DNA of 64,000 nt from Bacillota bacterium (lineage in GTDB: Bacteria > Bacillota > Dehalobacteriia > UBA4068): assembly GCA_050949225.1 (NCBI GenBank), contig JBMNFI010000002.1:6100-70099 (forward strand). The letters are read 5' to 3'. Below the pieces are notes generated by a model, which was given only the letters and a program-made list of their open reading frames with translations, did not search any database and was not told where the DNA came from. Position numbers and translations under genes: made by a program. Positions 1 to 52,264 of this stretch are shown in pieces (within the stretch, counting starts at the first letter, position 1; each line of letters opens with the position of its first letter).

Positions 1-3000
1 TTAACGCTTTGTGATGCCACACTGGAGGCTCCCATAGAGTTAAAGCTAACTGTATGAATCCTGGCTGCGGCACCAGGAGAGAATAATTCACCATTACCAT
101 TACCGGAGCTGGCATCAAAAGTAGCATAAGCTACTCCGCCGTTTCCGCCTGTAAAGACTGTGCCGTCTTTTAAGACAGCAATGTTCCAAATGTTATCAAA
201 GCCCGTTTGAGTCCAAGCGGCCTGACCATCAACAACTGTACTATTGTAATGGACGGGCGTGCTCTTTAGAGCAGCTTTATAGTATAGTCCATTACCTGTA
301 GTGCCAAACCATAGTCCATTGTTGGCATCAACTTTTACATAGCGAATTTCTACATCTGTTATAGATTCCAGTCCAGGCAAAAGATCATAGCCCGTATAAA
401 TCGTTCTATTGCCTGTTGGTGAAACATAGTCAACATAGCCGCCTTCAGTAAATAAAGAAGCACCGAAGGTTACGCCTGCCCTTACTACGTAAACACCGCC
501 ATTGGCATCAAGGGAAATACCACGTACCCACTGACCGGCAAAGGTTTGATGGGCAACAGCTTCATCAACGTAAGGTGTTACTTCACCTAAATTACTAATG
601 TAAGCATAGCCGCCTCTATAAACATTATTTGCTGCATCTACTTCATCAGGATAGCATCCGACCCAGGCACCGCCTTTTTGATCTAAGATAACGGTATTGA
701 CAGAGTTTGCCGGAATACCATCAGCCTTATTGTATTGAATCCAGGAATTATAAGCTGGATTATAAACCGAGACCCCTGTGCCATGACCGAACCAAACTTG
801 TCCATCAGAGTCTACTTTAACCTGTTGGACAAAGTCGCTGCCCAAACCATTATTGGTATTCTCCTGATTGAAGATGGTTATTTTATTATCTTTAAGATAA
901 GCAACACCTGCTGCATTATCTTGACTGCCTTGAGCAAACCAAACTCCACCTTCTGCATCCGGACAAATATCAACGATAGTGTTATTTAAAAGAGCAGGAG
1001 TGGATTGCTTGTGATAAGAACTCCAATTACCGTTGGCATCATGATAATAAGCACCGCCCATTAAGGTTCCAATCCACACGCCGCCGTTAGCATCGGGAAC
1101 AACACAACGGACATTACCGGCAAGCGGGATTTCTTGTGAATTCGTTTTCCACATGTTGAAGCTGTATGTGGTGGTACTGGAAGGAGTCACATCTACGCCC
1201 ATAACATTTTTCTGACAGTTCTGCCACTGTTTGGAATCTGTGCCTGCATTAATATTGGCATAGAGACGAATCTCGGCCTTGATCGAAGGATTATTTTTTA
1301 ATTCATCGCTAATATCCTGTCCGTTAACTTTATAAGCAATGAACATATTCTTAGCTGTTACATCGGCAAGATCCATATCCTTATAATCTGCGCCTTTTTC
1401 GCTGTTTTCAAAACCATCCTGGAAATTAAGCGTGATCGTGCCATTAGTGGCGGTGATTCCGGCATCCACCAATAAAGTGCTTAAAGATATACCTTCTACT
1501 GTATCAACTTCACCACTGACAGGATAAGTTTTAGTTTGCGCGGCAAAAGATTTGAGTTCTGTAAGGGTATAATCCTTAACTTTTGTTCCGTTAAGTTTAA
1601 GGGCGAAGGCTGAATCCTCCACAATCGGTGGGGTGACTCCCCCCTCGGTGACTTGGGCAACTACCATGTTTTTCAAACAGTTAAGCCAATCGGTGGCGCC
1701 GTCATTATGGTTACGATAGATTCTTACATAACCATATGTATCACTGCCCTTTTCTTTATCATAAACTAAGTTGCCGTCAACTACATAGGTAACCAGATAG
1801 TTTTTGCTTACCACATCACTGACAGAAATGTTTTCATATGTATCATGAGCATAGCCATCAGAAGTGATCAATTTGATTTTAGCATTCGCATCGGAGTTAT
1901 CAAGTCCTGCATCATACAGCAAGTCATCTAATTTGACACCGACTACACTGTCTGTATATTCAACGCTGGAGGAAAGATAACTATATTGTGATCTTTCCCA
2001 ACCCAGAGCTTTCAACTCATACAGTGAGTAAGATTTTAAGGTATTCCCCTCTTGGTCTTTGATGGCAAAAACATCAGCTACATCTGCTACAGGATAATCA
2101 GAGGGGGTCTCAAAGCCATTTGTGCCGCTACCGGGCAAAGATTCGCCAACAACGATACAGGTGGCATTTTTGATACATTTACCCTGTGATTCATGATAAA
2201 TTAAACGTAACAAGCCCTCCGTATTACCAACACTACCATCATAGCCGGGGTCTGTAGCCTTTTCGACAAAGGGTACACCTTCAACAGCATAGGCTAAAAT
2301 GACATTTCTCTTATCAGAAGAACTATTACCGGCGCCATTTAAAATAGCATCTACAATATTACCGGTAGGATAACCATCTCCGGAAATAACATTAACAGAA
2401 GTCGGAACACTGAGACCTTCCTTAAGTCCTATTTTTTGGAGTAATTTCCAAACATTAACACCTTGGAAGTTTTGATCTGTTACGGCAGTAAATTCACCTG
2501 TTTCAACAATATCATCCATGTCTTCCAAATCCCCTAAGGTCAAGGTTACAGGGGTTTTGATTTCTGAACCGGTAATTCTTAAAACAGGGATATCACGATA
2601 CTGTGAATATGGCTCAAAGTCATGCTTCCAATTTAATTGATCGGCGGCAGTAACTTCGATCTTTGTTACAGACCAAGCACAATTAACAGCATTATTTTCT
2701 GTTTCTGAGGTTTGACCTGTAACGACAGCCAAGGGACCGCCCTGATTTTCATAAGAGGCTTCATAGCCTTCATCAAGATCTGTCGGTACCAAGGGAAGTC
2801 CTTCGCTGACAGATGTTGTCGTATTGAGATTGGCGCCAAAGGCCAGCATCATTTTTAAATTACTGGTACCGGAAACGCTGTTTTGATAGTTGCTCTTACT
2901 TAATTCAGACATCGTGTACGTTTTGCTGGCACCATTATTATAGGTAACAACTATACCACTCGCATTAGCCTTTAAGCCTACCTCATTTTTGAGGAAATTA

Positions 3001-6000
3001 TATAAATCCAAGCCGCGATAACGGATTTCCTTGTCCGCATTACTGCTGCGCAGGTTATAAACGGCAGTGTTTTTATATGAACTCATTGCCTCTAGCTGGC
3101 TCACAGTAAAGCTTTTAGCGTTATTAACGCCATCACCTTCCACTGTCAGAACATTGTCCGCATAGGCATTATAGGGTTCAGACAAATGTGCATAAGAATC
3201 CGGCTCTAAGTTTACTACAATTTTACTTACATTATTTAAAGTTGCGCCGCTAGTATATCCGGTAATTTGCGGCAACACAAATTGCAAGGGGCCACCCTGG
3301 TTTTTGACCGTGAAACCGCTGTCATTCAAAACAGTGTTTGCTGTGTCATAGTTTACATAACCATTAGCATCTTTATTTAATACCAGAGGATAACCGTTTT
3401 TGGCAAAAGCCAGAACTGCCGACAGATTGTTTTTGCCGGTTTCAGAGCAAGAGCCAAGCTCACGCAAGTCATCCAGAGAAACTTCTACAGAGTTAGGTTC
3501 AGCCGCATCATCATAGAAGGTGACTGTACCGCTGTCTCCCGGCAGGCCGATTTTATTACTTAGCAGATACCAAAGGTTAACACCTTCATATAAATCGGCA
3601 TAACCCTTAACCATATAATAATTTTTGGCTTGAGCTTGTTTTTTCTGTGAAAAAGTGACAGCATTGCCATAAATCATTTTTTCCAGATCTTCAATGGTAT
3701 AATTCGTAATATCAGAAGAACCATTTATTTTAACTTCAACAGATAAACTATTATCTTTAAGTGCCTGATAGGCTCCTGAAGCACCTGCGTTATCATAGTG
3801 GGTGGAATAATTCACCACTTCCCCAATAGTAATATAATCCAACAGTTGTGTTTGATGTGAACCATTAGCATCACTATAGTTTTGTTTACCATGAATTAAA
3901 CGCAAAGGACCGCCGGAGTTGCTCAACCCCTTGTTATAGCCGGGGGAGGAACTGTTTACCACATAAGGATATTCATTAATACCATAGGCAATCAAAACCG
4001 GATAACCGGAATCAATGGGGTCCACAGTACTGGGATCAAAGCTTTCATCTATTCCATCAGCGGGATCTTTTTCAAAGAAAAAGAAGTTATCCGGATTGGA
4101 AATTTGCCCCAACTTAAAGTGTTGACTGCCTGTAAAGTTATCGCCGGCATGAGGGATCACGTTCGCATTAGCATTGGAAGTCGCAGCATCAGCTGGCAAA
4201 CCTGCCTTAAGCAGCAAATTATAAAGATCGATACCTCTATATTCATTGACATACCAGTACGAATTATTGGCCAAGCTATATTCGCCGGTGAGAATCAAAT
4301 CATTTAGGCCTTCCAGCTGCTCAACAGTCAGGTTAACCTCACGACCCAAAAGTGAGCCGTTTAGTGTTAAAATATGCTGCGTACTTGAAACATCATTATA
4401 AGGAGCTTTGTCATGTTCATAGCCGGGGGTAGAGTCTTCGGAAACATAAATATAGGCCATGTTGCCAAACTTCTTATTACCTCCACTGCCCTGATCATAA
4501 ACCAGCTTCACACAACCATCAGCATTATCTAAAGCACTGCTATACCAACTTGAGTATATCTCGCTGTCATAGATAAAGGGACGAGCATCAGTACCATTTC
4601 CGGTACCATAAGCAACGATTATCGGCTGATCAGTCGCATCTGCAGCAGCGACTTCAGCATAGGTAAAGGTAGCAATATCCTGACGATTACGGTTTTTGAT
4701 CGTAACCTTAGTACCTGTATCTAAGCGATTTGACTTATTATCCAAAAGATATTTTAATCTTACACCTTCATAAGTAAGCGTAGTAGCATTACCATTGCGG
4801 TAATCTGTATATTCACCACGGAAATAAGGTGCGCTGCCGGAAAGTCTTTCAATTTCCGCTATCGAAGGCATAGCCGAAGCACTGGTCCCCGGACCTTCAA
4901 TAGTCAAGGTTGCACCTGTTATAGCGGGAATATTGTACATATTACCCAACTCTTCATGATTAATGTGTTTATATTCACTGGTGGAAAAATCAATACCGCT
5001 GCCTGCCGTAATTTGGATTTCTGTTATCCCTTTTAACTGACGTGAACCATCAAACAAGGAAAGATAACCATTACCATTAACGGCATTTTTGTTTTCATAA
5101 ACAGCTTGCTTACTATCTGCATTATCACCAATTTCATAAGCCAAAACATACTCTTCTGCATTTGCACGAATATTAGCAACTGTTGTATTGGCAGCACTAT
5201 TATCATACGCATCATAAGAATGGAATTCTACAGTATCGTTATCATCGTAATCAGTTAACAAATCGGCCAGCTGTATTCCTGTATAAGCTTTGGTTGCCGT
5301 ACCTGCTTTGGTATTGTAAGAAGCTGTGCCTTGTACCCTTTCCATCATCAATATTTGAGCTCTTGTGTATTCGGATGTACCGATTTTTATGACCTTGTCC
5401 AGTTCATCACCTAAGCGTATTTTGCTTAAATATTTATTGAAACCGGAATTGTTAGCATCATACCAGGTTGCCTGCCCCATAATATTTTTCAAAACCGTTT
5501 TACCGGTATAATTAGTGGGAGTGCCTAATCCGGCAACAGTATCAGCTGTACTATCTGCCCAAGCAATCAAGGTAGAAACAGCAATAGGATCATTGCCGAC
5601 GGCTGTATTTGCCGGATTACCTGTATTTTGCGGATCACTGGGCGGGACGGAGCCATCATTTTTTGCCCAAACGGCGGTCGATAGATTAGGGAAATAATAT
5701 CTATTGTCATTATTAATAGTATATATCCAACTATCTGTTCCGTCTGCCTTAGGCTCAATAAAACTGATACCTCCATTATAGGCAGGTAGGGAAAAACCCG
5801 TATCGGCCAATAATGTGGACAATTCCACACCGGTAGCCCGTAAAAACCCGGTGAAACAATAAGTATTTAAAGTCGTATAGTCCTGTGTCTTAGCAGTCAT
5901 TGCCTGCAATTCCGACAGAGTGTAGGCCTTTTCATACTTGACATCAGACCCTAGTTCAGCTGCACCTTCCGTTGAGCCCAGACCTGATCCGGTAATCACC

Positions 6001-6125
6001 AAGACCGGCTGTTCTTTGCTCACGTCAGCTTGTGCCACAATCATGCCGCCCACAATCAGCGCAATAATCATGGCCATCACTAATAGCAACTTACCCGCGG
6101 CAAATCTCTTGCCTTTTTTGCTCAT
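1..6125 (-). CDS. Giant secreted multidomain protein, 3'-truncated by the window edge (>2,040 codons): signal peptide, nine tandem SUOX-fold / oxidoreductase molybdopterin-binding-like domains, C-terminal Reg_prop-type beta-propeller repeats
   Basis: Missing from the ORF track because the frame has no stop inside the window. The ATG is the complement of 6123-6125, with AAAGGAGG 8 nt upstream. Hand translation MSKKGKRFAAGKLLLVMAMIIALIVGGMIVAQA/DV... stays open down to position 3. Nine repeats of ~190 aa each carry YTLxEL-type, G(V/I)xLxxLL and GGPLRL-type blocks (e.g. EYRGIDLYNLLLKAGL at ~4200-4250, GGPLRLIHGK at ~3885-3915). From ~1170 to 1 there are repeats such as DANGGVWIGT and NNGLWFGTTGNGLYY. 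Confidence 0.85.
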   Translation of the reverse strand, partial: MSKKGKRFAAGKLLLVMAMIIALIVGGMIVAQADVSKEQPVLVITGSGLGSTEGAAELGSDVKYEKAYTLSELQAMTAKTQDYTTLNTYCFTGFLRATGVELSTLLADTGFSLPAYNGGISFIEPKADGTDSWIYTINNDNRYYFPNLSTAVWAKNDGSVPPSDPQNTGNPANTAVGNDPIAVSTLIAWADSTADTVAGLGTPTNYTGKTVLKNIMGQATWYDANNSGFNKYLSKIRLGDELDKVIKIGTSEYTRAQILMMERVQGTASYNTKAGTATKAYTGIQLADLLTDYDDNDTVEFHSYDAYDNSAANTTVANIRANAEEYVLAYEIGDNADSKQAVYENKNAVNGNGYLSLFDGSRQLKGITEIQITAGSGIDFSTSEYKHINHEELGNMYNIPAITGATLTIEGPGTSASAMPSIAEIERLSGSAPYFRGEYTDYRNGNATTLTYEGVRLKYLLDNKSNRLDTGTKVTIKNRNRQDIATFTYAEVAAADATDQPIIVAYGTGNGTDARPFIYDSEIYSSWYSSALDNADGCVKLVYDQGSGGNKKFGNMAYIYVSEDSTPGYEHDKAPYNDVSSTQHILTLNGSLLGREVNLTVEQLEGLNDLILTGEYSLANNSYWYVNEYRGIDLYNLLLKAGLPADAATSNANANVIPHAGDNFTGSQHFKLGQISNPDNFFFFEKDPADGIDESFDPSTVDPIDSGYPVLIAYGINEYPYVVNSSSPGYNKGLSNSGGPLRLIHGKQNYSDANGSHQTQLLDYITIGEVVNYSTHYDNAGASGAYQALKDNSLSVEVKINGSSDITNYTIEDLEKMIYGNAVTFSQKKQAQAKNYYMVKGYADLYEGVNLWYLLSNKIGLPGDSGTVTFYDDAAEPNSVEVSLDDLRELGSCSETGKNNLSAVLAFAKNGYPLVLNKDANGYVNYDTANTVLNDSGFTVKNQGGPLQFVLPQITGYTSGATLNNVSKIVVNLEPDSYAHLSEPYNAYADNVLTVEGDGVNNAKSFTVSQLEAMSSYKNTAVYNLRSSNADKEIRYRGLDLYNFLKNEVGLKANASGIVVTYNNGASKTYTMSELSKSNYQNSVSGTSNLKMMLAFGANLNTTTSVSEGLPLVPTDLDEGYEASYENQGGPLAVVTGQTSETENNAVNCAWSVTKIEVTAADQLNWKHDFEPYSQYRDIPVLRITGSEIKTPVTLTLGDLEDMDDIVETGEFTAVTDQNFQGVNVWKLLQKIGLKEGLSVPTSVNVISGDGYPTGNIVDAILNGAGNSSSDKRNVILAYAVEGVPFVEKATDPGYDGSVGNTEGLLRLIYHESQGKCIKNATCIVVGESLPGSGTNGFETPSDYPVADVADVFAIKDQEGNTLKSYSLYELKALGWERSQYSYLSSSVEYTDSVVGVKLDDLLYDAGLDNSDANAKIKLITSDGYAHDTYENISVSDVVSKNYLVTYVVDGNLVYDKEKGSDTYGYVRIYRNHNDGATDWLNCLKNMVVAQVTEGGVTPPIVEDSAFALKLNGTKVKDYTLTELKSFAAQTKTYPVSGEVDTVEGISLSTLLVDAGITATNGTITLNFQDGFENSEKGADYKDMDLADVTAKNMFIAYKVNGQDISDELKNNPSIKAEIRLYANINAGTDSKQWQNCQKNVMGVDVTPSSTTTYSFNMWKTNSQEIPLAGNVRCVVPDANGGVWIGTLMGGAYYHDANGNWSSYHKQSTPALLNNTIVDICPDAEGGVWFAQGSQDNAAGVAYLKDNKITIFNQENTNNGLGSDFVQQVKVDSDGQVWFGHGTGVSVYNPAYNSWIQYNKADGIPANSVNTVILDQKGGAWVGCYPDEVDAANNVYRGGYAYISNLGEVTPYVDEAVAHQTFAGQWVRGISLDANGGVYVVRAGVTFGASLFTEGGYVDYVSPTGNRTIYTGYDLLPGLESITDVEIRYVKVDANNGLWFGTTGNGLYYKAALKSTPVHYNSTVVDGQAAWTQTGFDNIWNIAVLKDGTVFTGGNGGVAYATFDASSGNGNGELFSPGAAARIHTVSFNSMGASSVASQSV

Positions 6126-6208
6126 TCTTATGTCCTCCTTTAATAATTTAAAATAAAAAGATTGCAAAATCATTAGTAGAATAGCATACAAAATCAACTT
6201 TATATGCT

Positions 6209-6245
6209 AAAAAAATAAGTACTCATGCAAAGAATAATGAGTACT
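6209..6245 (-). terminator. Intrinsic terminator; probable expression platform of the upstream riboswitch-like leader
   Basis: The minus strand reads AGTACTCAT, a 10-nt loop, ATGAGTACT, then TATTTTTTT. It begins 7 nt after the aptamer 3' end and lies ~85 nt before the giant CDS start. Confidence 0.75.
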
Positions 6246-6252
6246 CCGTTCC

Positions 6253-6370
6253 TACCAAATCCTTTCCAATCACGGGAGGTAAAAATGTTTCCACTTTTAC
6301 CCATCGGCCAAACCACCTTCTGTTTTCACAGGAAGGTAATAAAGCTCGGACAGTATTTAATTTGTCGGTA
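6253..6370 (-). promoter_or_regulatory. Candidate Moco (molybdenum cofactor) riboswitch aptamer, copy 1
   Basis: Minus-strand RNA: TACCGACAAAT-taaatactg-TCCGAGC-[ACCTTC(C)TGT gaaa ACAGAAGGT hairpin]-GCCgatGGGTAaaaGTGGAAACatttttACCTCCCGtgATTGGAAAGG-ATTTGGTA. The blocks UCCGAGC / GGAAAC / CCUCCCG / GGAAAGGA match my recollection of the Moco RNA motif core. A second copy at 17835-17948 keeps these blocks but has different stem sequences. Confidence 0.6.
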
Positions 6371-16846: not shown

Positions 16847-17677
16847 TTATTGCATGACCAACATCGTTAAATAAAAATCTGTATTAGTCGTATTATTTTT
16901 TTTACGGATAGAAACACCAATATTTTTAGCGGAAGGGGAAAGGATGTTAGAATTTCCCTCCCCGGTAATTAATGCATCAAAAAAAGATTGAGCGGAGGGG
17001 AAACCATAGGCAATATTTTCCCCCACATTGCTTAGTCCGTATTGAGCCACCCTTTGCTCATAAGTACCATTAGTGGGCGAGTTATGACTAAAAAAGCCTT
17101 TTTCCGCCATGTCCTTAGAGTGAGCCTGCGCCATCATAATCAGGGTGTTATGATTACTAAAACTTTTTAAACCTTTATCCTTCCGATAATCGTTGACCAG
17201 TTTAATAAACTCCTTTTCTGTATCAGAGAGCGATAAAAGAACACCTGAATCCGTGATCATTACGGTTTTCGTCTTATTATTCCAGTTCACATTGGTTTTA
17301 AGGCTTTCTCCCACAAACCGAATAGGAACCAAGGTGCGCCCTTTAATCACTTTAGCAGGCACATCTAAAGTTATACTCTTGCCATTAACGGTAGTATTTG
17401 TTTTATTGAGGTAAAGGAGAATAATATCGGATCCTTTACTTAGAGTGACTTTTTTGGTTGAGCCCTGGTAATTAACGCAACAGCCAAGATTTTCGGCAAC
17501 AGCACGAACCGGCACCAGCACACGTCCTTGTTCAAGAACGGGCGCAACATCCGGTTGCAAAGTGGTACCGTTGACCACGACTTTTACCTCCTGTGTAGCT
17601 AAAGCAGGAACTATCGTCACAGCCATAATCAGGGCGCAAGCCAATATCACAATTAGGATTTTTTTATTCTTAAACAT
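16847..17677 (-). CDS. Secreted protein with copper-amine-oxidase-N-terminal-like (stalk) repeats and a C-terminal CAP/SCP (YkwD-like) domain
   Basis: Signal peptide MFKNKKILIVILACALIMAV. VVVNGTTLQPDVAPVLEQGRVLVPVRAVAENLG and TVNGKSITLDVPAKVIKGRTLVPIRFVGESL are Cu_amine_oxidN1-type. AQAHSKDMAEKGFFSHNSP is CAP-type. Start trimmed to 17677 (AAGGAGG upstream). Confidence 0.7.
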   Translation of the reverse strand: MFKNKKILIVILACALIMAVTIVPALATQEVKVVVNGTTLQPDVAPVLEQGRVLVPVRAVAENLGCCVNYQGSTKKVTLSKGSDIILLYLNKTNTTVNGKSITLDVPAKVIKGRTLVPIRFVGESLKTNVNWNNKTKTVMITDSGVLLSLSDTEKEFIKLVNDYRKDKGLKSFSNHNTLIMMAQAHSKDMAEKGFFSHNSPTNGTYEQRVAQYGLSNVGENIAYGFPSAQSFFDALITGEGNSNILSPSAKNIGVSIRKKNNTTNTDFYLTMLVMQ

Positions 17678-17793
17678 GGAGACCTCCTTAAAAGATTCTC
17701 TCCAACGGCTAAACAAACTTCATCTGTAGAGATTTATATTCTAGAAATAAATGTCAGATCCTTTATTTACATAAATTTATTAAAATAAAAAAC

Positions 17794-17834: not shown

Positions 17835-17948
17835 AGATTTACAAATTGTCCGAAGCTGTTTGACCTAAAGTAAAAACCATGGCAAACAGCCACTGGGTAG
17901 CAGTGGAAACGCTTCTATCTCCCGCATTGGAAAGGATGATATTGATCT
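17835..17948 (+). promoter_or_regulatory. Candidate Moco riboswitch aptamer, copy 2 (no coding gene downstream)
   Basis: AGATTTACAAAT-tg-TCCGAAGC-[GCTGTTTG...CAAACAGC hairpin]-CactGGGTAgcaGTGGAAACgcttctATCTCCCGcATTGGAAAGGatgatATTGATCT. It has the same conserved blocks, in the same order, as copy 1. The helix sequences differ (closing helix AGAT/ATCT here, TACC/GGTA in copy 1). Confidence 0.6.
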
Positions 17949-17955
17949 GTAATTT

Positions 17956-17993
17956 ACAGGTTATTTTCCGATGTGGAAAATAACCTGTTTTTT
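17956..17993 (+). terminator. Intrinsic terminator directly after aptamer copy 2
   Basis: ACAGGTTATTTTCC-gatgt-GGAAAATAACCTGT followed by TTTTTT. It starts 7 nt after the aptamer 3' end, the same spacing as in copy 1. Confidence 0.8.
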
Positions 17994-18049
17994 ATTTCTC
18001 ATAAGTTCTTTTAAAATTTTGCCAGAATAACCGCATAGTTTTACCCTGT

Positions 18050-43730: not shown

Positions 43731-45650
43731 TTATTCCTTTTCAATCATATGCTTTCTTTTTTCTAAATAAACAATCAGCACATTAATATCGGCAGGGGAA
43801 ACTCCCGTGATGCGACTGGCTTGTCCAAGTGAAAGCGGACGGTTTTTTTGCAATTTTTGTGTCGCTTCTGTGGACAGGCCCCTAATCTCTTGATAGTCAA
43901 TGTCCACAGGCAAAACTTTTCTTTCCAGCTTGCTAAAACGTTCCACCTGTCTTTGTTGTTTAGCTATATATCCGGCATACTTGCAGCTGATTTCTACTAC
44001 CTCTGCCGCTTGTTCATTTAAAGGTTGAGAAGGGGGAGAAACCGCAGATATCTGTGCATAGTCCAGATGTGGCCGCCGCAAAAGTTCTGCATATGTGGCA
44101 TTAATCGTAGGAGCCAGTCCTAATTGAACACGTTCTGCTTGAGTAGGGCGCAATCTGCTTAGGCGGGCAATTTCTCCCTCGCAAACGGCTTTCTTTTGTG
44201 CATAAAAATTAGCCCTTTTATCATCTATTAAGCCCCACTTTTGTCCTTTTTCCGTCAATCTGGCATCAGCATTATCCTGTCTTAACAGTAGACGATATTC
44301 CGCCAAAGAGGTAAAAAGACGATAAGGCTCCGTAACCCCTTTAGTCACCAGGTCATCGATCATTACGCCAAGGTAGGCCTCCGCTCTGTTTAACGTAAAA
44401 GGAGGCAAGTTAAGAATGTCGGCAGCAGCGTTTGTGCCGGCTAAAAGCCCTTGTGCTGCGGCCTCCTCATAGCCGGAGGTTCCGTTAAGCTGTCCGGCGG
44501 AAAACAATCCTGCGATTTCCTTATGTGCCAAGCGATTATTCAGTTGCAGTGGGTCAAGGCAATCATATTCAATAGCATAGGCAGGCCGAACAATCTGCAC
44601 CTTCTCTAAACCCGGGATAGTGCGTAAGAAGGTGGTCTGAACTTCTTCCGGCAAGCTCGAAGACATTCCTTGCACATAATACTCCCGACAATCCAGACCC
44701 TCAGGCTCTAAAAAGAGCTGATGAGCCGATCGATCAGCAAAGCGCACAACCTTATCCTCAATGGAAGGGCAGTAACGTGCACCTACGCCGGTAATTGTGC
44801 CTGAATAAAGGGGTGAGCGGTGAAGGTTGTCTCTAATAACTTGATGGGTTTTTTCATTAGTGTAGCTCAACCAGCAGGGGATACGGGGCCGCAACAGGGC
44901 TTCTTCCCTAGTAGTTAAATAGGAAAAAGCCAGGCCACTATCATCTCCGGGCTGCTCGATGGTTTTGCTGAAATCAATGCTGCGCTTATCCACTCTGGCG
45001 GGGGTTCCTGTTTTGAATCTGGACAAAGGCAAGCCCAGATCGCGTAGATAGTTGCCCAGGGATAATGCCGCATGATGACCTACCGGCCCGGACTCATAAC
45101 TGAATTCACCAATAATTACTTTGCCGCCTAAGTAAGTGCCGCAAGCTAAAATGATTTTATCCGCTAAGAAAACGGCTCCATTTGCCAGGCGAACCCCTCT
45201 TACACAGGCATTTTTCATCTCTAGCTCGGTGACTTCTCCCTGGCGCAAAGTAAGGTTTTCAGTGTGTTCCAGATAGCGGCGCATATTAATCTGATAGGAA
45301 GGCTTATCTATCTGAGCACGTAAGGCTTGTACTGCAGGGCCTTTGCCGGTATTAAGCATACGGATTTGGATTTGACTGCTGTCGGTGATTAACCCCATGG
45401 CGCCACCCAGAGCATCAATTTCCCGCACCAAAACACTTTTAGCCGGGCCGCCTATAGCGGGGTTGCAGGGGGTAAGGGCGATTGCCTCCGGACTTATTGT
45501 TAAAAGCAGTGTTTTAACGCCCATACGTGCAGCAGCTAAAGCGGCCTCACAGCCGGCATGGCCACCACCCACCACAATTACCTGATATTCACCGGCAACA
45601 AAAGAGCTGGCTTTTCTTTTCTTGTTATTTAATAGTTGTTTTTGACCCAT
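43731..45650 (-). CDS. mnmG: tRNA uridine 5-carboxymethylaminomethyl modification enzyme MnmG (GidA)
   Basis: YQVIVVGGGHAGCEAALAAARMG contains the FAD motif. ~639 aa. Start trimmed to the ATG at 45650. Confidence 0.95.
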   Translation of the reverse strand: MGQKQLLNNKKRKASSFVAGEYQVIVVGGGHAGCEAALAAARMGVKTLLLTISPEAIALTPCNPAIGGPAKSVLVREIDALGGAMGLITDSSQIQIRMLNTGKGPAVQALRAQIDKPSYQINMRRYLEHTENLTLRQGEVTELEMKNACVRGVRLANGAVFLADKIILACGTYLGGKVIIGEFSYESGPVGHHAALSLGNYLRDLGLPLSRFKTGTPARVDKRSIDFSKTIEQPGDDSGLAFSYLTTREEALLRPRIPCWLSYTNEKTHQVIRDNLHRSPLYSGTITGVGARYCPSIEDKVVRFADRSAHQLFLEPEGLDCREYYVQGMSSSLPEEVQTTFLRTIPGLEKVQIVRPAYAIEYDCLDPLQLNNRLAHKEIAGLFSAGQLNGTSGYEEAAAQGLLAGTNAAADILNLPPFTLNRAEAYLGVMIDDLVTKGVTEPYRLFTSLAEYRLLLRQDNADARLTEKGQKWGLIDDKRANFYAQKKAVCEGEIARLSRLRPTQAERVQLGLAPTINATYAELLRRPHLDYAQISAVSPPSQPLNEQAAEVVEISCKYAGYIAKQQRQVERFSKLERKVLPVDIDYQEIRGLSTEATQKLQKNRPLSLGQASRITGVSPADINVLIVYLEKRKHMIEKE

Positions 45651-45680
45651 CAATGTCCCCTCTGAATTGTTTAATATCGA

Positions 45681-47075
45681 CTATTTGCCTAAGCAAAACT
45701 TACTGAAAATCCTTGCAATAACTTCTTCACCGGCTGTTTTGCCACTAATTTCACCGAAATACTGCCAAGCTTCTTCTAAGTCAATGGCAGCAATATCAAC
45801 CGGGTAACCATCATTTAAGGCTTTTATGGATCGCTCCAGTGATTTTTTAGCAGAAATAAGCGCCTCTTGATGACGTGCATTGTTAATCAAATGGTCTCGC
45901 TGCCCGGAAAGCCCTTCTGTTAAAACCAGCTGTTTAATGGTTTGTTCTAATTGATCTAATCCGTCTCCGGTTTTGGCTGAAACAGAGATACATGGTACTT
46001 GTGGATACTGCTTTTTAACAAAGTTAATTGTCTCTTTAGCACCGGCTAAGTCATTTTTGTTTACTATGACCACTATTTTTTTCTCGTTAAATGATGTAAG
46101 CAGAGACTCTTCTTCTGTTAACAACGGTCGTGAACCATCTAAAACTAATAAAATCAGTTGGGCGGACTCTGCCACTTGATGTGTTTTATCTATACCTAAA
46201 GTTTCTACCTCGTCAGCAGACTCCCGTAATCCGGCCGTATCGCTCAAAATAATTGGTAAACCACCTAAATTAAGATACTCTTCGATCACATCACGAGTGG
46301 TCCCCGGCACAGATGTGACAATTGCCCTTTCTTCTGCCAAAAGTGCGTTTAGAATACTTGATTTACCTACATTGGTAGCGCCTAAAAGGCAGGTTTTGAT
46401 CCCCTCTTTGATAATTCTTCCCTCTTGAGCACCCGCTAGAAGCTTTTTTATCTGCTTAATAAGCGGTTTTATCTGTGTAATCGCTTCCTGCGAACTTAAT
46501 GCATCCTCATCATCAGGAAAGTCAACACCCACTTCAATTTGTGCCAAAATATCCAAAAGCTCATCTTCAATCGCTTGTAAAGCACGACTTAATTTGCCGG
46601 TAAGCTGCTGTGCTAACATGTCGGCAGCCTGTGGAGTAGGGGCATCAATCAGATCGTTGACTGCTTCTGCCTGAGTCAAATCCACACGACCATGCAAAAA
46701 GGCACGCAAGGTATATTCCCCCGGTTGAGCTAGCCGGGCTCCGGCCGCTATGGCCGCCGCTAAAACCCGAGTAGGGGATTGCATCCCTCCATGACACTGT
46801 AATTCCACTACATCTTCACCTGTATAAGAATGTGGCGCGGGCATATAAACAACCAAGGCTTCATCAATAAGTTGCTTGTTTTGATCATAAAGATTGCTAT
46901 ATTTCATCTGTCTGGCAGGTAGCTCTGTTAATTGCGACAAAAGCAAGCCGATTTTTAAAGATTTTTTGCCGCTCAGGCGCACAATGCTAATTCCGCCACT
47001 ACCAATAGGTGTAGCAATCGCCGCAATTGTCTCATCCAGTCCGTATTCACTTAATTTATTGGCGGTTTTTTTCAT
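45681..47075 (-). CDS. mnmE: tRNA modification GTPase MnmE (TrmE)
   Basis: 464 aa with the G1 motif GATNVGKSS, DTAGLR, NKNDL and the C-terminal FCLGK. Confidence 0.95.
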   Translation of the reverse strand: MKKTANKLSEYGLDETIAAIATPIGSGGISIVRLSGKKSLKIGLLLSQLTELPARQMKYSNLYDQNKQLIDEALVVYMPAPHSYTGEDVVELQCHGGMQSPTRVLAAAIAAGARLAQPGEYTLRAFLHGRVDLTQAEAVNDLIDAPTPQAADMLAQQLTGKLSRALQAIEDELLDILAQIEVGVDFPDDEDALSSQEAITQIKPLIKQIKKLLAGAQEGRIIKEGIKTCLLGATNVGKSSILNALLAEERAIVTSVPGTTRDVIEEYLNLGGLPIILSDTAGLRESADEVETLGIDKTHQVAESAQLILLVLDGSRPLLTEEESLLTSFNEKKIVVIVNKNDLAGAKETINFVKKQYPQVPCISVSAKTGDGLDQLEQTIKQLVLTEGLSGQRDHLINNARHQEALISAKKSLERSIKALNDGYPVDIAAIDLEEAWQYFGEISGKTAGEEVIARIFSKFCLGK

Positions 47076-47125
47076 AATATTTTCTTTCTCTATAATATTA
47101 TTTGTTCTGCAGATTGTTTTTTAAT

Positions 47126-47157
47126 TAAAAACAAACCCGACTTTTTTTGTCGGGTTG
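47126..47157 (-). terminator. Intrinsic terminator after jag
   Basis: The minus strand reads AACCCGAC-aaaaaaa-GTCGGGTT followed by TGTTTTT. Confidence 0.75.
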
Positions 47158-47162
47158 TTCTG

Positions 47163-48014
47163 TTATTTGTTTTTACGTTTTTTAACAATTACTATGCGTC
47201 TGTATGGCTCATCACCGCAGCTTAGAGTATCAACCCTTTTATCGTCCTGCAATGCCATATGGATAATCCGTCTTTCATGTGGATTCATGGGGTCCAGTTC
47301 CAGCCGACGTCCGGAACGAACCGCCTGATCTGCCATCTTCCTAGCTAAATTATGAAGAGTTTTTTTTCTGCTTTTACGATACCCTTCAACATCAAAAACA
47401 ATCCGTGTATGTTCCTCTTTTCCTCTATTAATAATTAAATTAGTTAGGTACTGCAAAGAATTGATGGTTTCGCCACGACGTCCAATTAAAGAACCTAAAC
47501 CGACACCGAAAAAAGAAATCCATAAAATATTATCCTTGACTTTTGATTCATGAGTGGGATTTAATTTCATTTTGGCCAATATCGGCTCCATAAAGGCTAA
47601 GGCCTCTTGTTCCGCTGAGATAAATTTACCAAAAGGAGCAACTCCTTTAACCTCTTTAACCTCTTTATTTGTTTTATTAGCAGGTTGATCTTCCTTTTTT
47701 TGAACAGAATCAAAAGTAACAGCTTTTGCTTCTCCTTCACTCTTTGCTTTGTCGGGAGCAACAACTTCAGCCGTCGGCTTTGATTTTTTTACCGGTCTAT
47801 GTATTTCAGAGGAGGGTTTTTTTTCTTCTTCTTTTTGTGCTTTTTGAACAGTAACCTGCACTTTTGCCGGTTTACCACCTAAACCTAAAAAACCTCTACT
47901 ACCTACATCCAAAACATCCACTTCTACTTCATCTAATCCGACACCGGCCGCCTCGCAAGCTGCCGTTAAAGCAGCTTCTACAGTTTTTCCGGTACCTTCA
48001 AAAACATTGTTCAT
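47163..48014 (-). CDS. jag: Jag/KhpB RNA-binding protein (Jag_N, KH, R3H)
   Basis: 283 aa with an N-terminal GKTVEAALTAACEAAG, a K/E-rich linker, and the C-terminal R3H region MNPHERRIIHMAL. Confidence 0.88.
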   Translation of the reverse strand: MNNVFEGTGKTVEAALTAACEAAGVGLDEVEVDVLDVGSRGFLGLGGKPAKVQVTVQKAQKEEEKKPSSEIHRPVKKSKPTAEVVAPDKAKSEGEAKAVTFDSVQKKEDQPANKTNKEVKEVKGVAPFGKFISAEQEALAFMEPILAKMKLNPTHESKVKDNILWISFFGVGLGSLIGRRGETINSLQYLTNLIINRGKEEHTRIVFDVEGYRKSRKKTLHNLARKMADQAVRSGRRLELDPMNPHERRIIHMALQDDKRVDTLSCGDEPYRRIVIVKKRKNK

Positions 48015-48060
48015 TTTTTACACCCCTTGTTTGTTTTAAGGCGTTATTATCAAGCATAAC

Positions 48061-49185
48061 TCATTTTTTTCTGCGCAATTGCCGCTTTTTGCTGCCCTTT
48101 TTAACCTTGGATCTCATTTCCTCAGAAAGAGGTTTGGATTCCGGTAAAGGCTTATTGGTTTTAGCAGCGGAAGCACCCTCGTCTATTCTAACTGATCCAT
48201 CGGGAGTGCTGATATATCCTCCGGTTTCATCATCTGAACGCTTAGACCAAGGATGATCCCCATCAAAAATTTCATTTTGAGTTAGCTTCGTTTTAACTTC
48301 TTGGCCTTTATCCTTATTATCCTTGCCCTCCTTGCCTCTTTTAGCTGCCTTTTCTTTGGCTTTTTTTTCTTTTTCCGCTTGCGCTGCAGCAACAGCTCTA
48401 TCCAATTCTGAGAGTTTTCGATGTTCTTTTTGATGTCTCTTTTTAGGATCAAGTAAAGCTTCTTGCTCCAGTTTTTCTTCTGCTAAAAGTTCTTCTTTAG
48501 CACATTTTCTATTAACCATAATCTGCTGCACACCACCGAGAACACTGAAACTAATCCAATAAAGACTTAGTGCGGCCGGGAAATTTCTGGAGATAAAACC
48601 AAAGAAGATCGGCATAAAGTAAAGCATCATCTTTTGACTCGGATTAGAGCTATCAACGGTGGACATTTTTTGCTGTAAAAAAGTGGCAAGACCAACTATA
48701 ACTGGTAAAATCCAACCCGTAGGATCCGGCAAGGAAAGACTGTCTATCCAGAAAAAAGAATAGTTCACTCCTTCGGGAGGAACAAAGCTATAGATAGTAC
48801 GATATAAAGCAATCAAAATAGGCATTTGAATCAACAAAGGCAAACAACCGCTTAAAGGATTTATATCATATTCTCTATAAATACGAAAAGTTTCCTCATT
48901 TTTCTTTTGCGGATCGTTTTCATATTTTTGATTGATCTCCATAATCAAAGGCTGGATCTTCTGCATGCCACGCATTGATCGCATTTGTTTAAGAGTTAAC
49001 GGATAAAGAGCAAGTTTGATAACAATTGTAAAAAGTACGATAGCTAAGGCATAACTGGGTAAGTTAACTATATCAGTAAATTGATATAATATGTTTAAAA
49101 ACCAAGCTAAAGCATCCTTAATAGCATTCCAGCCATTGGATATTCCTAATAAATTGTTAGAGATATTGAAAAAAAATTCCAACAT
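48061..49185 (-). CDS. yidC: Membrane protein insertase YidC with a long basic C-terminal extension
   Basis: 374 aa. The core is ...IVIKLALYPLTLKQMRSMRGMQKIQP...GCLPLLIQMPILIAL.... The last ~150 aa are K/E/R-rich. Confidence 0.9.
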   Translation of the reverse strand: MLEFFFNISNNLLGISNGWNAIKDALAWFLNILYQFTDIVNLPSYALAIVLFTIVIKLALYPLTLKQMRSMRGMQKIQPLIMEINQKYENDPQKKNEETFRIYREYDINPLSGCLPLLIQMPILIALYRTIYSFVPPEGVNYSFFWIDSLSLPDPTGWILPVIVGLATFLQQKMSTVDSSNPSQKMMLYFMPIFFGFISRNFPAALSLYWISFSVLGGVQQIMVNRKCAKEELLAEEKLEQEALLDPKKRHQKEHRKLSELDRAVAAAQAEKEKKAKEKAAKRGKEGKDNKDKGQEVKTKLTQNEIFDGDHPWSKRSDDETGGYISTPDGSVRIDEGASAAKTNKPLPESKPLSEEMRSKVKKGSKKRQLRRKK

Positions 49186-49243
49186 TAATTATCTCCTTTG
49201 TAATCTACAGTTATTTTTATGTTGGCTGCTACGACAGCCTAGT

Positions 49244-49498
49244 TTATTTATTTGTTTTCCATAAGTTTTTTTCCATAGTAAAAGGTAAATCAGGAACGGG
49301 ATCAAAACCCCCTGGATTAAAAGGATGACAACGACAAAGACGTTTAAATCCTAACCAGAAACCCCTTACCGCGCCATAGCGGGTTATGGCTTCCAAAGTA
49401 TATTGTGAACAGGTAGGATAATAACGACAATGTGCTCCCAATAAGGGAGAAATAGCCATCTGATAAAATTTAATCATTGCAATCATTATTTTAGCCAT
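49244..49498 (-). CDS. yidD: Membrane protein insertion efficiency factor YidD
   Basis: [30 protein letters not shown]...[13 protein letters not shown] is canonical YidD. Confidence 0.92.
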
Positions 49499-49613
49499 TT
49501 TTTATCCTTTAAAAGACTGCTTTATTGCTGCCATTTTTACCAAAATAACAACAATAATAATCATACAATTCCCATAATCGTTTTCAAACTCCATTATTTG
49601 TTACTTGCACAGA

Positions 49614-49946
49614 TCAAGGAACTTTTTTAAGCGCCATTACAATTTCTTCTTTCACTTGTTTAAAAGACATTTTATCAGCATTTTTTCTTATAATAAATAT
49701 ATAATCATACTGAAGTGGGAAACTATCCGCCATTTTGCGGCAAGCCTCCTTAAAGCGTCTTTTAAGCAGATTTCTTTGTACTGCTTTACCTGTTTTTTTA
49801 GAGATAGAAAAACCAATTCTAAATCCCTTTTGCCTGCGGTTTTTTCGATAATAAAAGACAAAACCTCGATAGGCATGGGATTTCCCATATCGATAAATTA
49901 TTCTAAAATCTCTGTTTTTTTGTAAACGATTTTCTTTATCTAACAT
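49614..49946 (-). CDS. rnpA: Ribonuclease P protein component
   Basis: 110 aa, basic. RLQKNRDFRIIY...ISKKTGKAVQRNLLKRRFKEA contains the RNR motif. Located directly downstream of rpmH. Confidence 0.92.
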   Translation of the reverse strand: MLDKENRLQKNRDFRIIYRYGKSHAYRGFVFYYRKNRRQKGFRIGFSISKKTGKAVQRNLLKRRFKEACRKMADSFPLQYDYIFIIRKNADKMSFKQVKEEIVMALKKVP

Positions 49947-49951
49947 AGAGC

Positions 49952-50086
49952 TTAAGCTGATAAGACTTTTCTGCCTTTAGCACGTCTTCTTCTTAAAACA
50001 TTACGACCACCTTTACTGCTCATTCGAGACATAAAGCCATGTACTCTTTTATGAACACGTTTTTTGGGCTGATAAGTTCTTTTCAT
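49952..50086 (-). CDS. rpmH: 50S ribosomal protein L34
   Basis: Not in the ORF track (44 aa). Hand translation gives [50 protein letters not shown] lies upstream. Confidence 0.95.
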
Positions 50087-50750
50087 TATGAATGCATCCT
50101 CCTTCATTAAAAATAATCATTCTATATTTAGACCTCTTTTAAGACATTCCGTTAGAACAGTCTTTTGATACTTTTTTAGACTGTTTGATAAATTGTACTA
50201 CCAATTATATCTTTCATCTTTATATGAATAAATCTTAAAAAAGTCTAACAGTGAAATTATATCTTAAAAAATAATTTTAGTCAACCAAGACTTGTATTTT
50301 TAGCTTAAACCTACATCAATATATTAGATACAAAAATTTACCTTTGATGCTGCAATTTTTTAGATATTCTCAGATGCTTCGGATATCGTATAGTTAAGAC
50401 TCCTTTAAACCTTTTACCAAGGATTTTTCCTTACAATATTTCAACTAAGAAGAGTTTTTTAACCAATTTTCCTGCAGTTACATTTGAGATAATATTTTCG
50501 CAGTTCTGGAAAGAACTTGCTTAACTTAAACGATGAAGATTCTCAATCCATTACTTGAATTCGTTGGCATATCGAGACCATTTTGAAACACTGTTTAATA
50601 TTATTATTTCCTTTTTCAAGTTTAACCTGTTAAAATTTTTATGTCCATAATTCAAATACTAAAATCAGCTATTATTTTTTATTAGTATTTGATAGCTCTT
50701 ACAGATTGTCGCCAAAAATTTTTCAATATCTCCATCTTCTTTATTGAAAT

Positions 50751-50862
50751 TGTGGATAAATTTTGTTATCATTACTAATACAGCCTGTTTTTATATACTT
50801 ATCCACTGTTTTATTGAAAATGTGTTCGTAAGATTTTTTTACAACTATGTTTTTGTGGATAA
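50751..50862. other. oriC part 1: DnaA-box cluster immediately upstream of dnaA
   Basis: TGTGGATAA 50751-50759 (perfect), TTATCCACT 50799-50807 (1 mismatch) and TGTGGATAA 50854-50862 (perfect), against the consensus TTATCCACA. Confidence 0.8.
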
Positions 50863-50917
50863 CTTTAATATTATACTTTCATTTATTAGCGAATTGGCGG
50901 AAATAGGGGGATTAATA

Positions 50918-52264
50918 GTGGAAAATGTTTGGCTAAAAACACTTGATTTAATAAAAATGGATATTGGTTCTGCACGTTTTGATCGCTGGTTTTGTTCCGT
51001 AGAAAACATAACTCTTCGTAATGGCACCGTTTATATAACTGTACCCGATGAATATGCTCAGGAATATATGCAGCAATCTTTTTATAAAAGTATCAAAAAA
51101 AACCTTAAACTGGTTTCCAACCAAAACTTGGATGTTTATTTTGTAACTAATGACGAAATAATACCGGAAGAAGAAAATAATACGAATAACAAAACTCCTA
51201 AAAATAATATTTTAGAATTTTCTGAAGTGGCAGGTAATGGATTTCAATTCAATCCACGTTATACTTTTGATTCTTTTGTGGTGGGAAATTCTAATCGTTT
51301 TGCACATGCCGCGGCTATGGCTGTTGCAGACAGGCCATCAAGAACCTATAATCCTTTATTTATTTATGGCGGATCAGGATTAGGAAAAACACATTTAATG
51401 CATGCTATTGCACAAAAAATTTTAATACAAAACAAACAAACTAATGTAGTATATATTTCTACAGAAAGTTTTACTAATGAATTTATTTCTATGATTAGAA
51501 CCGGTAAAGCTCACGCTTTTAAAAACCGTTATCGCAATGCCGATGTTTTTTTAATAGATGATATTCAATTTTTAGCCGGTAAAAAAGAAACCCAGGAAGA
51601 ATTTTTTCATACTTTCAACGCTCTTCATGATCTGGAAAAACAAATCATTATTACTTCGGACAGACCACCTAAAGAAATAGAAATGTTGGAAGAAAGATTA
51701 CGCTCCCGTTTTGAATGGGGATTAATCACAGATATTCAGCCCCCAGATGTAGAAACTCGCTGTGCTATTTTACAGAGAAAAGCTCTTTCGGAAAATGCTC
51801 ATTTATCTGACGAAGTAATCTTTTTAATCGCTGATAAAATTCATTCCAATATTCGAGAGCTGGAAGGTGCTTTAAATAAAGTAATGCATTTTGCTTTACT
51901 GAATAATATCGTGGATATTGAGGTTTCTCATGTTTTGGAAGCCTTAAAAGAAATTTTACCTAAAGAATCACAACAAAAACCAACTATTGAATTGATTCAA
52001 AAAATTGTTGCTGATCATTTTGATCTACGTATTAATGATATGAAAAGCAAAAAAAGAGATCGTGCTATTTCCTATCCCCGACAAATTGCTATGTATCTTT
52101 GTCGAGATATATTAGATATTTCTTTCCCTAAAATAGGACATGATTTTGGCGGTAGAGATCATTCTACAGTCATTCATGCTTGTGAAAAAATTGATCAATT
52201 ACTTAATTATGACCTGCAGTTAGAAAAAACTATTAAACAATTAACCGCACAAATAACTAAATAA
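50918..52264 (+). CDS. dnaA: Chromosomal replication initiator protein DnaA
   Basis: GTG start at 50918 (AGGGGG 7 nt upstream) gives (M)ENVWLKTLDLIK.... Walker A GGSGLGKTHL and C-terminal HSTVIHACEKI. The ORF-track TTG at 50744 would make the protein read through the DnaA boxes. Confidence 0.93.
   Translation: MENVWLKTLDLIKMDIGSARFDRWFCSVENITLRNGTVYITVPDEYAQEYMQQSFYKSIKKNLKLVSNQNLDVYFVTNDEIIPEEENNTNNKTPKNNILEFSEVAGNGFQFNPRYTFDSFVVGNSNRFAHAAAMAVADRPSRTYNPLFIYGGSGLGKTHLMHAIAQKILIQNKQTNVVYISTESFTNEFISMIRTGKAHAFKNRYRNADVFLIDDIQFLAGKKETQEEFFHTFNALHDLEKQIIITSDRPPKEIEMLEERLRSRFEWGLITDIQPPDVETRCAILQRKALSENAHLSDEVIFLIADKIHSNIRELEGALNKVMHFALLNNIVDIEVSHVLEALKEILPKESQQKPTIELIQKIVADHFDLRINDMKSKKRDRAISYPRQIAMYLCRDILDISFPKIGHDFGGRDHSTVIHACEKIDQLLNYDLQLEKTIKQLTAQITK

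Follow-up and report, generated by a model that had tools for sequence, protein, structure and literature searches.

What does a bacterium do with an exported protein of more than 2,000 residues that is built largely of repeated sulfite oxidase (SUOX)-fold domains and whose gene lies behind a riboswitch for the molybdenum or tungsten cofactor (Moco or Tuco)? This question is raised by a gene at the left end of the 64,000-nucleotide stretch of Bacillota DNA analysed here (contig JBMNFI010000002.1, positions 6,100 to 70,099; hereafter the window), which encodes on its minus strand a giant protein with nine such domains and a beta-propeller. From the fold of the repeats, the anatomy of the leader and the genes that accompany its relatives, we tentatively propose that the protein is not an enzyme and that it would capture a pterin-type ligand at the cell surface during starvation and hand it to an importer.

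The gene is open over its whole length in the window. A minus-strand frame without a stop extends over 2,068 codons from window position 6206 to base 3, with a likely start at the ATG at 6125 and a ribosome-binding site, AAGGAGGA (6133..6140, minus strand), 8 nt before it. The coding sequence in the window (3..6125, minus strand) covers residues 1-2041 of 2,214, and because these 2,041 residues are 100% identical to database protein P0001 (2,214 residues), the frame is intact, without the frameshift or stop that the original prediction, made from the letters alone, had named as a possible flaw. A sequencing artefact or pseudogene was ruled out by the open frame and this identity. The last 173 residues lie beyond the window's left end. 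The full length, the open frame, self-alignment and Pfam together confirm the predicted secreted protein of more than 2,000 residues with nine repeats and a propeller, an architecture as unusual as it had been said to be.

Both ends of the protein point to the cell surface. Residues 1-33 (6027..6125, minus strand) read as a Sec-type signal peptide, MSKKGKRFAAGKLLLVMAMIIALIVGGMIVAQA/DV, cut after AQA at the expected VAQA/DV junction; by eye, KGKRF is present and a twin-arginine motif is not, and most relatives likewise appear Sec-like when their signal peptides are judged by inspection. Behind the repeats lies a beta-propeller of the Reg_prop type (residues ~1651-2010; 96..1175, minus strand), with Reg_prop scores of 49.1 and 61.6 bits (cut-off 20.4) over 3-5 stretches and SGL scores of 26-27 bits in Pfam; both of the blade motifs that had suggested it, NGGVWIGT and NGLWFGTTGNGLYY, are present. 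Remoter matches to the propeller region (P0043-P0048) carry the histidine-kinase domains HATPase_c and HisKA. The giant protein itself has no transmembrane or output domain. Instead of the SLH domain or sortase signal suggested for the C-terminus, Pfam finds in the 173 out-of-window residues of P0001 a Listeria-Bacteroides repeat (Flg_new) and a Cu_amine_oxidN1 domain. The latter may be this organism's cell-wall attachment module, replacing the SLH domains of relatives, and we read the giant protein from its sequence as Sec-exported and wall-associated. A further secreted protein in the window (16847-17716, minus strand) combines the Cu_amine_oxidN1 domain that terminates the giant protein with CAP domains.

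The nine repeats (R1-R9), each of about 150-210 residues, are mutually homologous and follow one another along the minus strand. Self-alignment finds six blocks common to all of them. These are an opening strand, a helix with the pattern 'YTLxEL', a beta-hairpin, the motif 'G[VI]xLxxLL' and two further strands, one of the 'DGY' and one of the 'GGPLRL' type. The original prediction had placed these motifs in each repeat, which is right in kind and overstated in detail, since D-x-[YF] is found in R2, R4, R7, R8 and R9 and GGPL in R4, R5 and R6. In profile-profile comparison by hhalign, using sub-alignments of 42 family members, all repeats are linked, R6 matching each of the others at a probability of at least 96% and R4 matching each at 93.7% or more. 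R1 (residues 36-242; 5400..6020) pairs with R4 (96.9%) and R6 (96.8%), R2 (residues 243-385; 4971..5399) with R8 (99.0%), and R5 (residues 786-985; 3171..3770) with R6 (99.7%) and R4 (98.2%). R3 (residues 386-575; 4401..4970) opens a conserved core that continues through R4 (residues 576-785; 3771..4400), R5 and R6 (residues 986-1165; 2631..3170) and ends with R7 (residues 1166-1335; 2121..2630), which matches R4 at 99.7%. R8 (residues 1336-1497; 1635..2120) and R9 (residues 1498-1650; 1176..1634) match each other at 99.9%.

We assigned the fold by modelling R3 and R4 with AlphaFold2 and tying in the other seven repeats through these hhalign links. The models are confident (mean predicted local distance difference test score 82.5 for R3 and 85.5 for R4; predicted template-modelling score 0.84 for R4). 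In Foldseek searches of the PDB, the R4 model matched structures of proven or putative pterin-binding PruR proteins first (7kom, 7rkb, 7kos and 7kp2; E = 2e-6 to 5e-5; template-modelling scores of 0.68-0.74, normalised by target), followed by SorT, YedY and nitrate reductase, and the R3 model likewise found PruR 7kom first (E = 2.5e-7), then chicken sulfite oxidase (1.3e-5), SorA, nitrate reductase, SorT, YedY and SoxC. Both models matched Moco enzymes at E = 1e-5 to 3e-3 with probability 1.00, and unrelated folds appeared in these searches only at E above about 0.1. At the sequence level, Pfam Oxidored_molyb (PF00174) reaches 62.3 bits for the whole protein, summed over repeats, against a cut-off of 24, and with Reg_prop also above its cut-off the suggested hmmscan check supports both domain assignments. 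Single repeats all fall below 24 bits: R9 is best (23.2 bits, E = 5.6e-5), R2 (E = 0.0027), R7 (E = 0.008), R6 (E = 0.09) and R8 (E = 0.18) are fainter, and R1, R3, R4 and R5 are unmatched. A sequence-profile search of R4 against solved structures returned nothing significant, the link being made by the fold search only, and hhalign of the repeats against Escherichia coli MsrP aligned just the C-terminal GGP-x-R block (R6, 16% probability, E = 0.0016). The models and the summed Pfam score bear out the predicted SUOX fold, and the models place the cofactor-less PruR proteins as its nearest solved relatives. R4 is the most conserved repeat, with 34 invariant columns, among them N620, Y623 and W624 at the hairpin tip. 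Domains of its type are rare: a search of 1.84 billion representatives yielded 137 clusters at E <= 1e-3, and most of these are large proteins hit in several places.

SUOX enzymes carry their molybdenum-ligand cysteine at this hairpin region (PMC11194511). Alignment to the MsrP sequence could not fix the position in the repeats, and we set it from the hairpin of the R4 model (strands 611-619 and 624-633) and the R1/R4 alignment. Cys90 (5856-5858, minus strand), within NTYCFTGF of R1, falls at the hairpin tip, where hhalign pairs it with the invariant Tyr623 of R4, and the equivalent segments of R2-R9 are Cys-free. The lone cysteine at the presumed Moco-ligand position of R1 is thus real and had been placed roughly correctly, but it is not a family trait: its column holds Cys in one of 40 aligned family members and P, E, G, N or S in the others. 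Across the 42-protein family alignment no Cys column reaches 20% frequency at the hairpin tip of any repeat; the only family-conserved cysteines are C538 (74%) and C1317 (71%), both away from the tips. C538 (4510-4512, minus strand) replaces the Pro of GGP-x-R in R3, and C1317 (2173-2175, minus strand) lies in R7.

Within the giant protein, conservation is lowest in R1 and R2 and peaks in R3-R7, the only repeats retained in a short family form that is widespread (query residues ~376-1334). Loading of a cofactor in the cytoplasm is ruled out because the signal peptide is Sec-type. Since Cys90 is not conserved, R1 and R2 are poorly conserved and dropped from the short form, and export is by Sec, a Moco-containing, catalytic R1 is very unlikely. 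The scheme of the original prediction, in which R1 would be a Moco-binding, possibly catalytic module and R2-R9 degenerate scaffolds, has the location of Cys90 at the site of the SUOX ligand cysteine in its favour; set against the points above, and against the lack of a Pfam match to R1, we give it next to no chance. The companion suggestion that repeats act as non-catalytic binding modules gains support, and a bound metal centre is probably absent from them.

The leader of the gene indicates when such a protein would be made. A Moco/Tuco riboswitch aptamer lies at 6243..6363 (minus strand), where cmscan matches RF01055 over model positions 1-135, its full length, with 70.1 bits (gathering score 36, E = 7e-15), and what had been noticed as a riboswitch-like leader is a genuine member of the Moco family. 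The P3 stem is deleted in the cmscan alignment, as in four other aligned examples, and a covariance model that we trained on five P3-less examples scores the leader at 95.5 bits. Directly after the aptamer comes an intrinsic terminator (6209..6246, minus strand) with the stem AGTACTCAT/ATGAGTACT followed by TATTTTTTT; folding of the leader RNA returned the aptamer helices and a 12-bp hairpin (z = -3.8). AUGGGUA, a core segment of the aptamer, could pair with UACUCAU in the 5' arm of the terminator, a possible antiterminator when the aptamer is unfolded. P3-less Moco RNAs have been proposed as sensors of the tungsten cofactor (PMC2408646), and the absence of P3 defines the Tuco-type subclass (PMC2408646 and PMC11725836). 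According to the latter study, operons of Eubacterium limosum with a P3-less aptamer and terminator rise under tungsten limitation, and its Tuco riboswitches control tupABC and two Fec-type transporters (PMC11725836). Because of the terminator anatomy and these tungsten-limitation data, we infer that the leader is an OFF switch, with the gene expressed when the pyranopterin cofactor is scarce. The window holds a second P3-less Moco/Tuco riboswitch (17836-17995, plus strand; 59 bits), followed by a hairpin and T-run; no plausible open reading frame lies behind it before the M29 aminopeptidase gene at 18322, and it looks like an orphan, stand-alone aptamer without a cofactor-related gene.

The linkage between riboswitch and giant gene holds across the family. 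The protein database contains 41 relatives (32-39% identity, 1,200-2,900 residues), most without a name and many with SLH domains. A scan of GTDB, with one genome per species, found at least 157 relatives in Clostridia genomes at no more than 41% identity to the window protein, and we kept 80 loci for neighbourhood analysis. Nearly all of these are annotated as Clostridia or unclassified Bacillota (Anaerovoracaceae, Mogibacterium, Lentihominibacter, Syntrophomonadaceae, Peptococcaceae, Clostridiaceae, Tissierellales, Oscillospiraceae), and two are from isolates rather than metagenome-assembled genomes (MAGs), namely Christensenella sp. MSJ-20 and Anoxynatronum sibiricum Z-7981. RF01055 lies upstream in all three homologues looked up in their assemblies. 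At least 700 nt of upstream DNA is available for 70 GTDB loci, and in 52 of these our P3-less covariance model places a Moco aptamer ahead of the giant gene on its strand, at a distance of no more than 700 nt in 37. Of 38 equivalent leaders 32 have a hairpin and T-run, and of the remaining six, four are terminator-like by eye. A genome carries only a handful of Moco RNAs; a chance association was ruled out by the 52 of 70 same-strand upstream aptamers. Clustered or tandem Moco RNAs occur upstream of the giant gene in two MAGs, four in a Syntrophomonas MAG (L022, 2687-8626) and two in a Tepidanaerobacteraceae MAG (L016, 6967-7338). Our literature search on Moco/Tuco importers, Oxidored_molyb surface proteins and flavinylated SUOX proteins found this family described nowhere, and it is apparently undescribed.

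In relatives, the transcription unit that begins with the riboswitch goes on to encode an importer of one of two types. A Fec-type ATP-binding cassette (ABC) importer, recognised by FecCD and/or Peripla_BP_2, accompanies the giant gene in 27 loci (same strand in 25/25 for FecCD and 27/27 for Peripla_BP_2), and an energy-coupling factor (ECF) importer with a PF09819 S component and CbiQ in 25 (same strand for CbiQ in 21/22). One or the other is found in 52 of the 80 loci and both types together in none. Small single-domain SUOX-like proteins recur in these neighbourhoods, and four loci encode a fusion of the PF09819 S component with a SUOX-like (Oxidored_molyb) domain (L056, 16759-17877; L031, 5142-6320; L039, 5145-6323; L047, 2819-3967), the two being adjacent genes elsewhere. 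ECF systems normally do without an extracytoplasmic binding domain. Neither the small operon-encoded proteins nor the fusion has a Cys at the hairpin-tip position; in L056 the fusion is Cys-free throughout. Other recurrent partners are MobB (17 loci, same strand in 17/17), a secreted metallophosphoesterase (about 14 loci), ApbE (11 loci, same strand in 10/11) and a MotA_ExbB protein with DUF2149 (15 loci, same strand in 15/15). This last pair, in L001-L003 as well as in the 15 GTDB loci, shares its transcript with a Big_2 protein and the Fec-type importer, in hosts that are presumably single-membrane (monoderm) Clostridia.

The binding protein of the ABC importer resembles solved siderophore-type binders, but Haemophilus influenzae HI_1472 (3psa/3psh; E = 3.6e-16), which we take to be MolA, is closer. 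MolA binds molybdate and tungstate. The ECF S component had no match among PDB sequences. In the A. sibiricum locus (L056, 22072-22855) a further Moco RNA lies directly before a vitamin-type ECF S component (PF12822), which makes the latter a candidate importer of a cofactor-related substrate. Downstream of the window's own giant gene the DNA lies outside the window; neither an exact look-up of P0001 nor a search of metagenome contigs for an exact 48-nt match to the window's left end retrieved it. From the conduct of its relatives we infer an importer partner for it too.

A flavinylation-type motif is a further constant of the family. Of 42 members, 41 have a single copy of the consensus D[AGS]ITGAT, in which T403 and T406 do not vary; it conforms to the ApbE recognition form D-x-x-[ST]-G-A-[ST]. 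In the window protein it reads PAITGAT (residues 400-406; 4908..4928, minus strand) and lies in a linker of lower confidence just ahead of the first strand of the R3 model. Locus L004, in which ApbE is encoded directly between the riboswitch and the giant gene, also has an FMN_bind+Oxidored_molyb lipoprotein with IAITGAT. Pfam finds no FMN_bind domain (PF04205) in the giant protein, BLASTP of the R2-R3 linker against a true FMN_bind domain shows only a 13-residue motif in common, and the window holds no ApbE homologue. ApbE-flavinylated proteins mediate extracytosolic electron transfer (PMC8238504).

Taken together, these observations suggest to us, as the leading account though at less than even odds, a starvation-induced capture system. 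Shortage of cofactor would let transcription pass the riboswitch terminator and the giant protein be made, and plentiful cofactor would turn it off. The nine SUOX-fold domains would act as cofactor-less, PruR-type binding modules displayed at the cell surface, most plausibly for a Mo/W pyranopterin cofactor that other cells release, either as such or as a precursor or breakdown product. Captured ligand might then pass to the small SUOX-like proteins and on to the Fec/MolA-type ABC or ECF importer; the secreted phosphoesterase could trim dinucleotide forms outside the cell and MobB rebuild them inside, and a putative flavin on the conserved threonine, with ApbE in some loci, might keep the ligand reduced. 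In the more specific and rather doubtful version of this proposal, giant protein, Cys-free SUOX-like proteins and importers would form the first bacterial system to salvage the Mo/W pyranopterin cofactor, whole or as its pterin moiety. The giant protein would be a wall-spanning array of pterin receptors made only during cofactor shortage.

Several points weigh against ligand capture of this kind. The argument for it is wholly comparative, and the propeller is left unexplained. The stacking-Trp position of PruR is Arg or Lys here, as in SUOX enzymes, and the pocket for this reason does not simply reproduce that of PruR. Moco not bound to protein is chemically unstable. The binding protein of the ABC importer, being nearer MolA than characterised siderophore binders, favours an oxyanion substrate. 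Carriers are not obviously cofactor auxotrophs, because several related loci have moaA, moaC or moeA nearby. The window's copy of the flavinylation motif has Pro in place of the conserved Asp, and the 58 kb upstream of the giant gene within the window contain no importer, ApbE or Moco gene.

The MolA likeness leads to the strongest competing account, metal acquisition, in which the surface protein would, when W or Mo is limiting, concentrate tungstate or molybdate, or their thio- or chelated forms, and so feed a type II ABC importer resembling MolBC-A. The riboswitch logic is equally compatible with it, SUOX active sites naturally bind oxyanions, a LysR-HTH + PBP_like_2 regulator is adjacent in L056, and both the rank of HI_1472 ahead of characterised siderophore binders and the control of tupABC and two Fec-type transporters by Tuco riboswitches in E. 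limosum (PMC11725836) speak for it. Yet about half of the loci with an importer have the ECF type with a PF09819 S component, not the CbiM/NikM-type component that metal-specific ECF systems use; the nearest fold relatives bind pterins, not oxyanions; and oxyanion uptake offers no evident use for MobB, the flavinylation motif or the secreted phosphoesterase. We regard oxyanion capture as unlikely, though deserving of serious attention. The flavinylation motif opens a different path, an extracytosolic redox machine in which covalent flavin mononucleotide (FMN) together with pterin or Moco in SUOX-like domains would make either a reductase or a path for electrons across the wall, supplied from a chain for flavin-based extracellular electron transfer. 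MsrP is a periplasmic SUOX reductase, and the invariant position of D[AGS]ITGAT, the presence of ApbE and the FMN_bind+Oxidored_molyb lipoprotein in the same operons, and the known role of ApbE-flavinylated proteins (PMC8238504) all lend colour to the idea. It is nonetheless improbable: there is no conserved molybdenum-ligand Cys and no Pfam FMN_bind domain in the giant protein, export is of the Sec type, a terminator-type riboswitch would shut the enzyme off exactly when its cofactor is available, and the tight, mutually exclusive linkage to two importer types would go unexplained.

Finally, PruR being the best structural match, the domains might report extracellular pterins to a signalling partner, with the Reg_prop propeller borrowed from two-component sensors, as the HATPase_c and HisKA domains of remoter propeller matches could suggest. 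In the annotated loci no DcpA-type, GGDEF/EAL or kinase gene adjoins the giant gene, the protein lacks the transmembrane and output parts of a sensor, and nine tandem copies linked to importers suit a sensor badly, which makes this account very improbable. We retain the capture of a pterin-type ligand as our working proposal.

What is at stake can be stated briefly. We know of no bacterial importer for Moco, Tuco or molybdopterin, and a literature search for one turned up none; nor, to our knowledge, has a regulon yet been well defined for the P3-less 'Tuco' riboswitches. A receptor family under riboswitch repression and linked to two interchangeable importers would be a concrete and testable candidate for cofactor or W/Mo scavenging, and its carriers live in communities of the gut, the rumen and anaerobic digesters, many of whose members need W/Mo enzymes. 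If the pterin proposal is right, the PruR class of pterin-binding SUOX-fold proteins would extend from proteobacterial signalling to Gram-positive transport; if the ligand is instead a metal oxyanion, Tuco-controlled 'iron transporters' would need reinterpretation. Cultured carriers are on hand in the two isolates named above.

The rest of the window offers two points of orientation. The chromosome origin region lies at 43731-52264, with mnmG (43731-45653, minus strand), mnmE (45681-47075, minus strand) and dnaA (50744-52264, plus strand), and places the giant gene about 45 kb from dnaA. A LarC-type nickel-insertion protein (PF01969; 14505-15671, plus strand) has housekeeping neighbours (panB, pepF, an M20 peptidase, GerM, HAD and MscL) and no evident link to the giant gene.

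Among known systems, the giant protein appears to work most like PruR, as a non-catalytic SUOX-fold binder. PruR, too, lacks the molybdenum-ligand cysteine, and it binds small pterins between Tyr104 and Trp160 with Asn102 (PMC11194511). The likeness (7kos, 7kom, 7kp2 and, with neopterin, 7rkb) comprises the SUOX fold, the missing ligand Cys, secretion, a non-enzymatic nature and the first Foldseek rank for both modelled repeats. Its N/D-x-Y pterin-contact motif has a possible counterpart in D-x-Y/F of R2, R4, R7, R8 and R9, absent from R1, R3, R5 and R6, and in sequence alignment an operon-encoded small homologue places D-E-Y on N-D-Y of 7kom. The differences are nevertheless considerable. PruR is a single domain of ~170 residues in Proteobacteria, whereas nine tandem copies and a propeller make up 2,214 residues in Clostridia, at a sequence identity of about 12-17%; its partners are DcpA-type c-di-GMP enzymes or sensor kinases in a two-gene operon, as against importers or housekeeping genes here; and control by a Moco/Tuco riboswitch sets the giant gene apart. 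At the level of residues, the residue aligned with Trp160 is the Arg of GGP-x-R, and where PruR has Pro-Trp at the former Cys position, the tip of R4 has Tyr623-Trp624 and no Pro-Trp. The SUOX enzymes of PF00174 (MsrP/YedY, sulfite oxidase, SorA/SorT, nitrate reductase) share the fold, the summed Pfam score and the C-terminal GGP-x-R...I motif, the only block that hhalign aligns between R6 or R7 and MsrP. They differ in the conserved Cys ligand and in the dimerisation or haem domains, which the repeats lack, and in Tat rather than Sec export, and individual repeats stay under the Pfam cut-off.

For the regulatory and transport side, the riboswitch itself is an ordinary RF01055 member of the P3-less class, and the closest parallel is the Tuco regulon of E. 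limosum (WOR1, tupABC, two Fec-type 'iron' ABC transporters and focA), which shares the P3-less RF01055 and terminator platforms, the riboswitch control of Fec-type ABC importers and the derepression of terminator-type operons under tungsten limitation; that study, as far as consulted, describes no giant SUOX-like surface protein and interprets the transporters as iron transporters (PMC11725836). To MolBC-A (HI1470/71/72; 3psa/3psh) the co-operonic importer is tied by its binding protein, a clear sequence relative. MolBC-A imports molybdate and tungstate, and we know of no surface-receptor partner for it. Gram-positive ECF vitamin importers provide another riboswitch-repressed module for cofactor import, with an S-component family not associated with metals, but here a SUOX-like domain accompanies the S component, as a fusion or in an adjacent gene. 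The haem and B12 surface capture systems follow a similar logic of giant, wall-spanning, multi-domain receptors, by analogy only. Seen against all of these, the whole system has a realistic chance of being a new type of cofactor or metal scavenging machinery.

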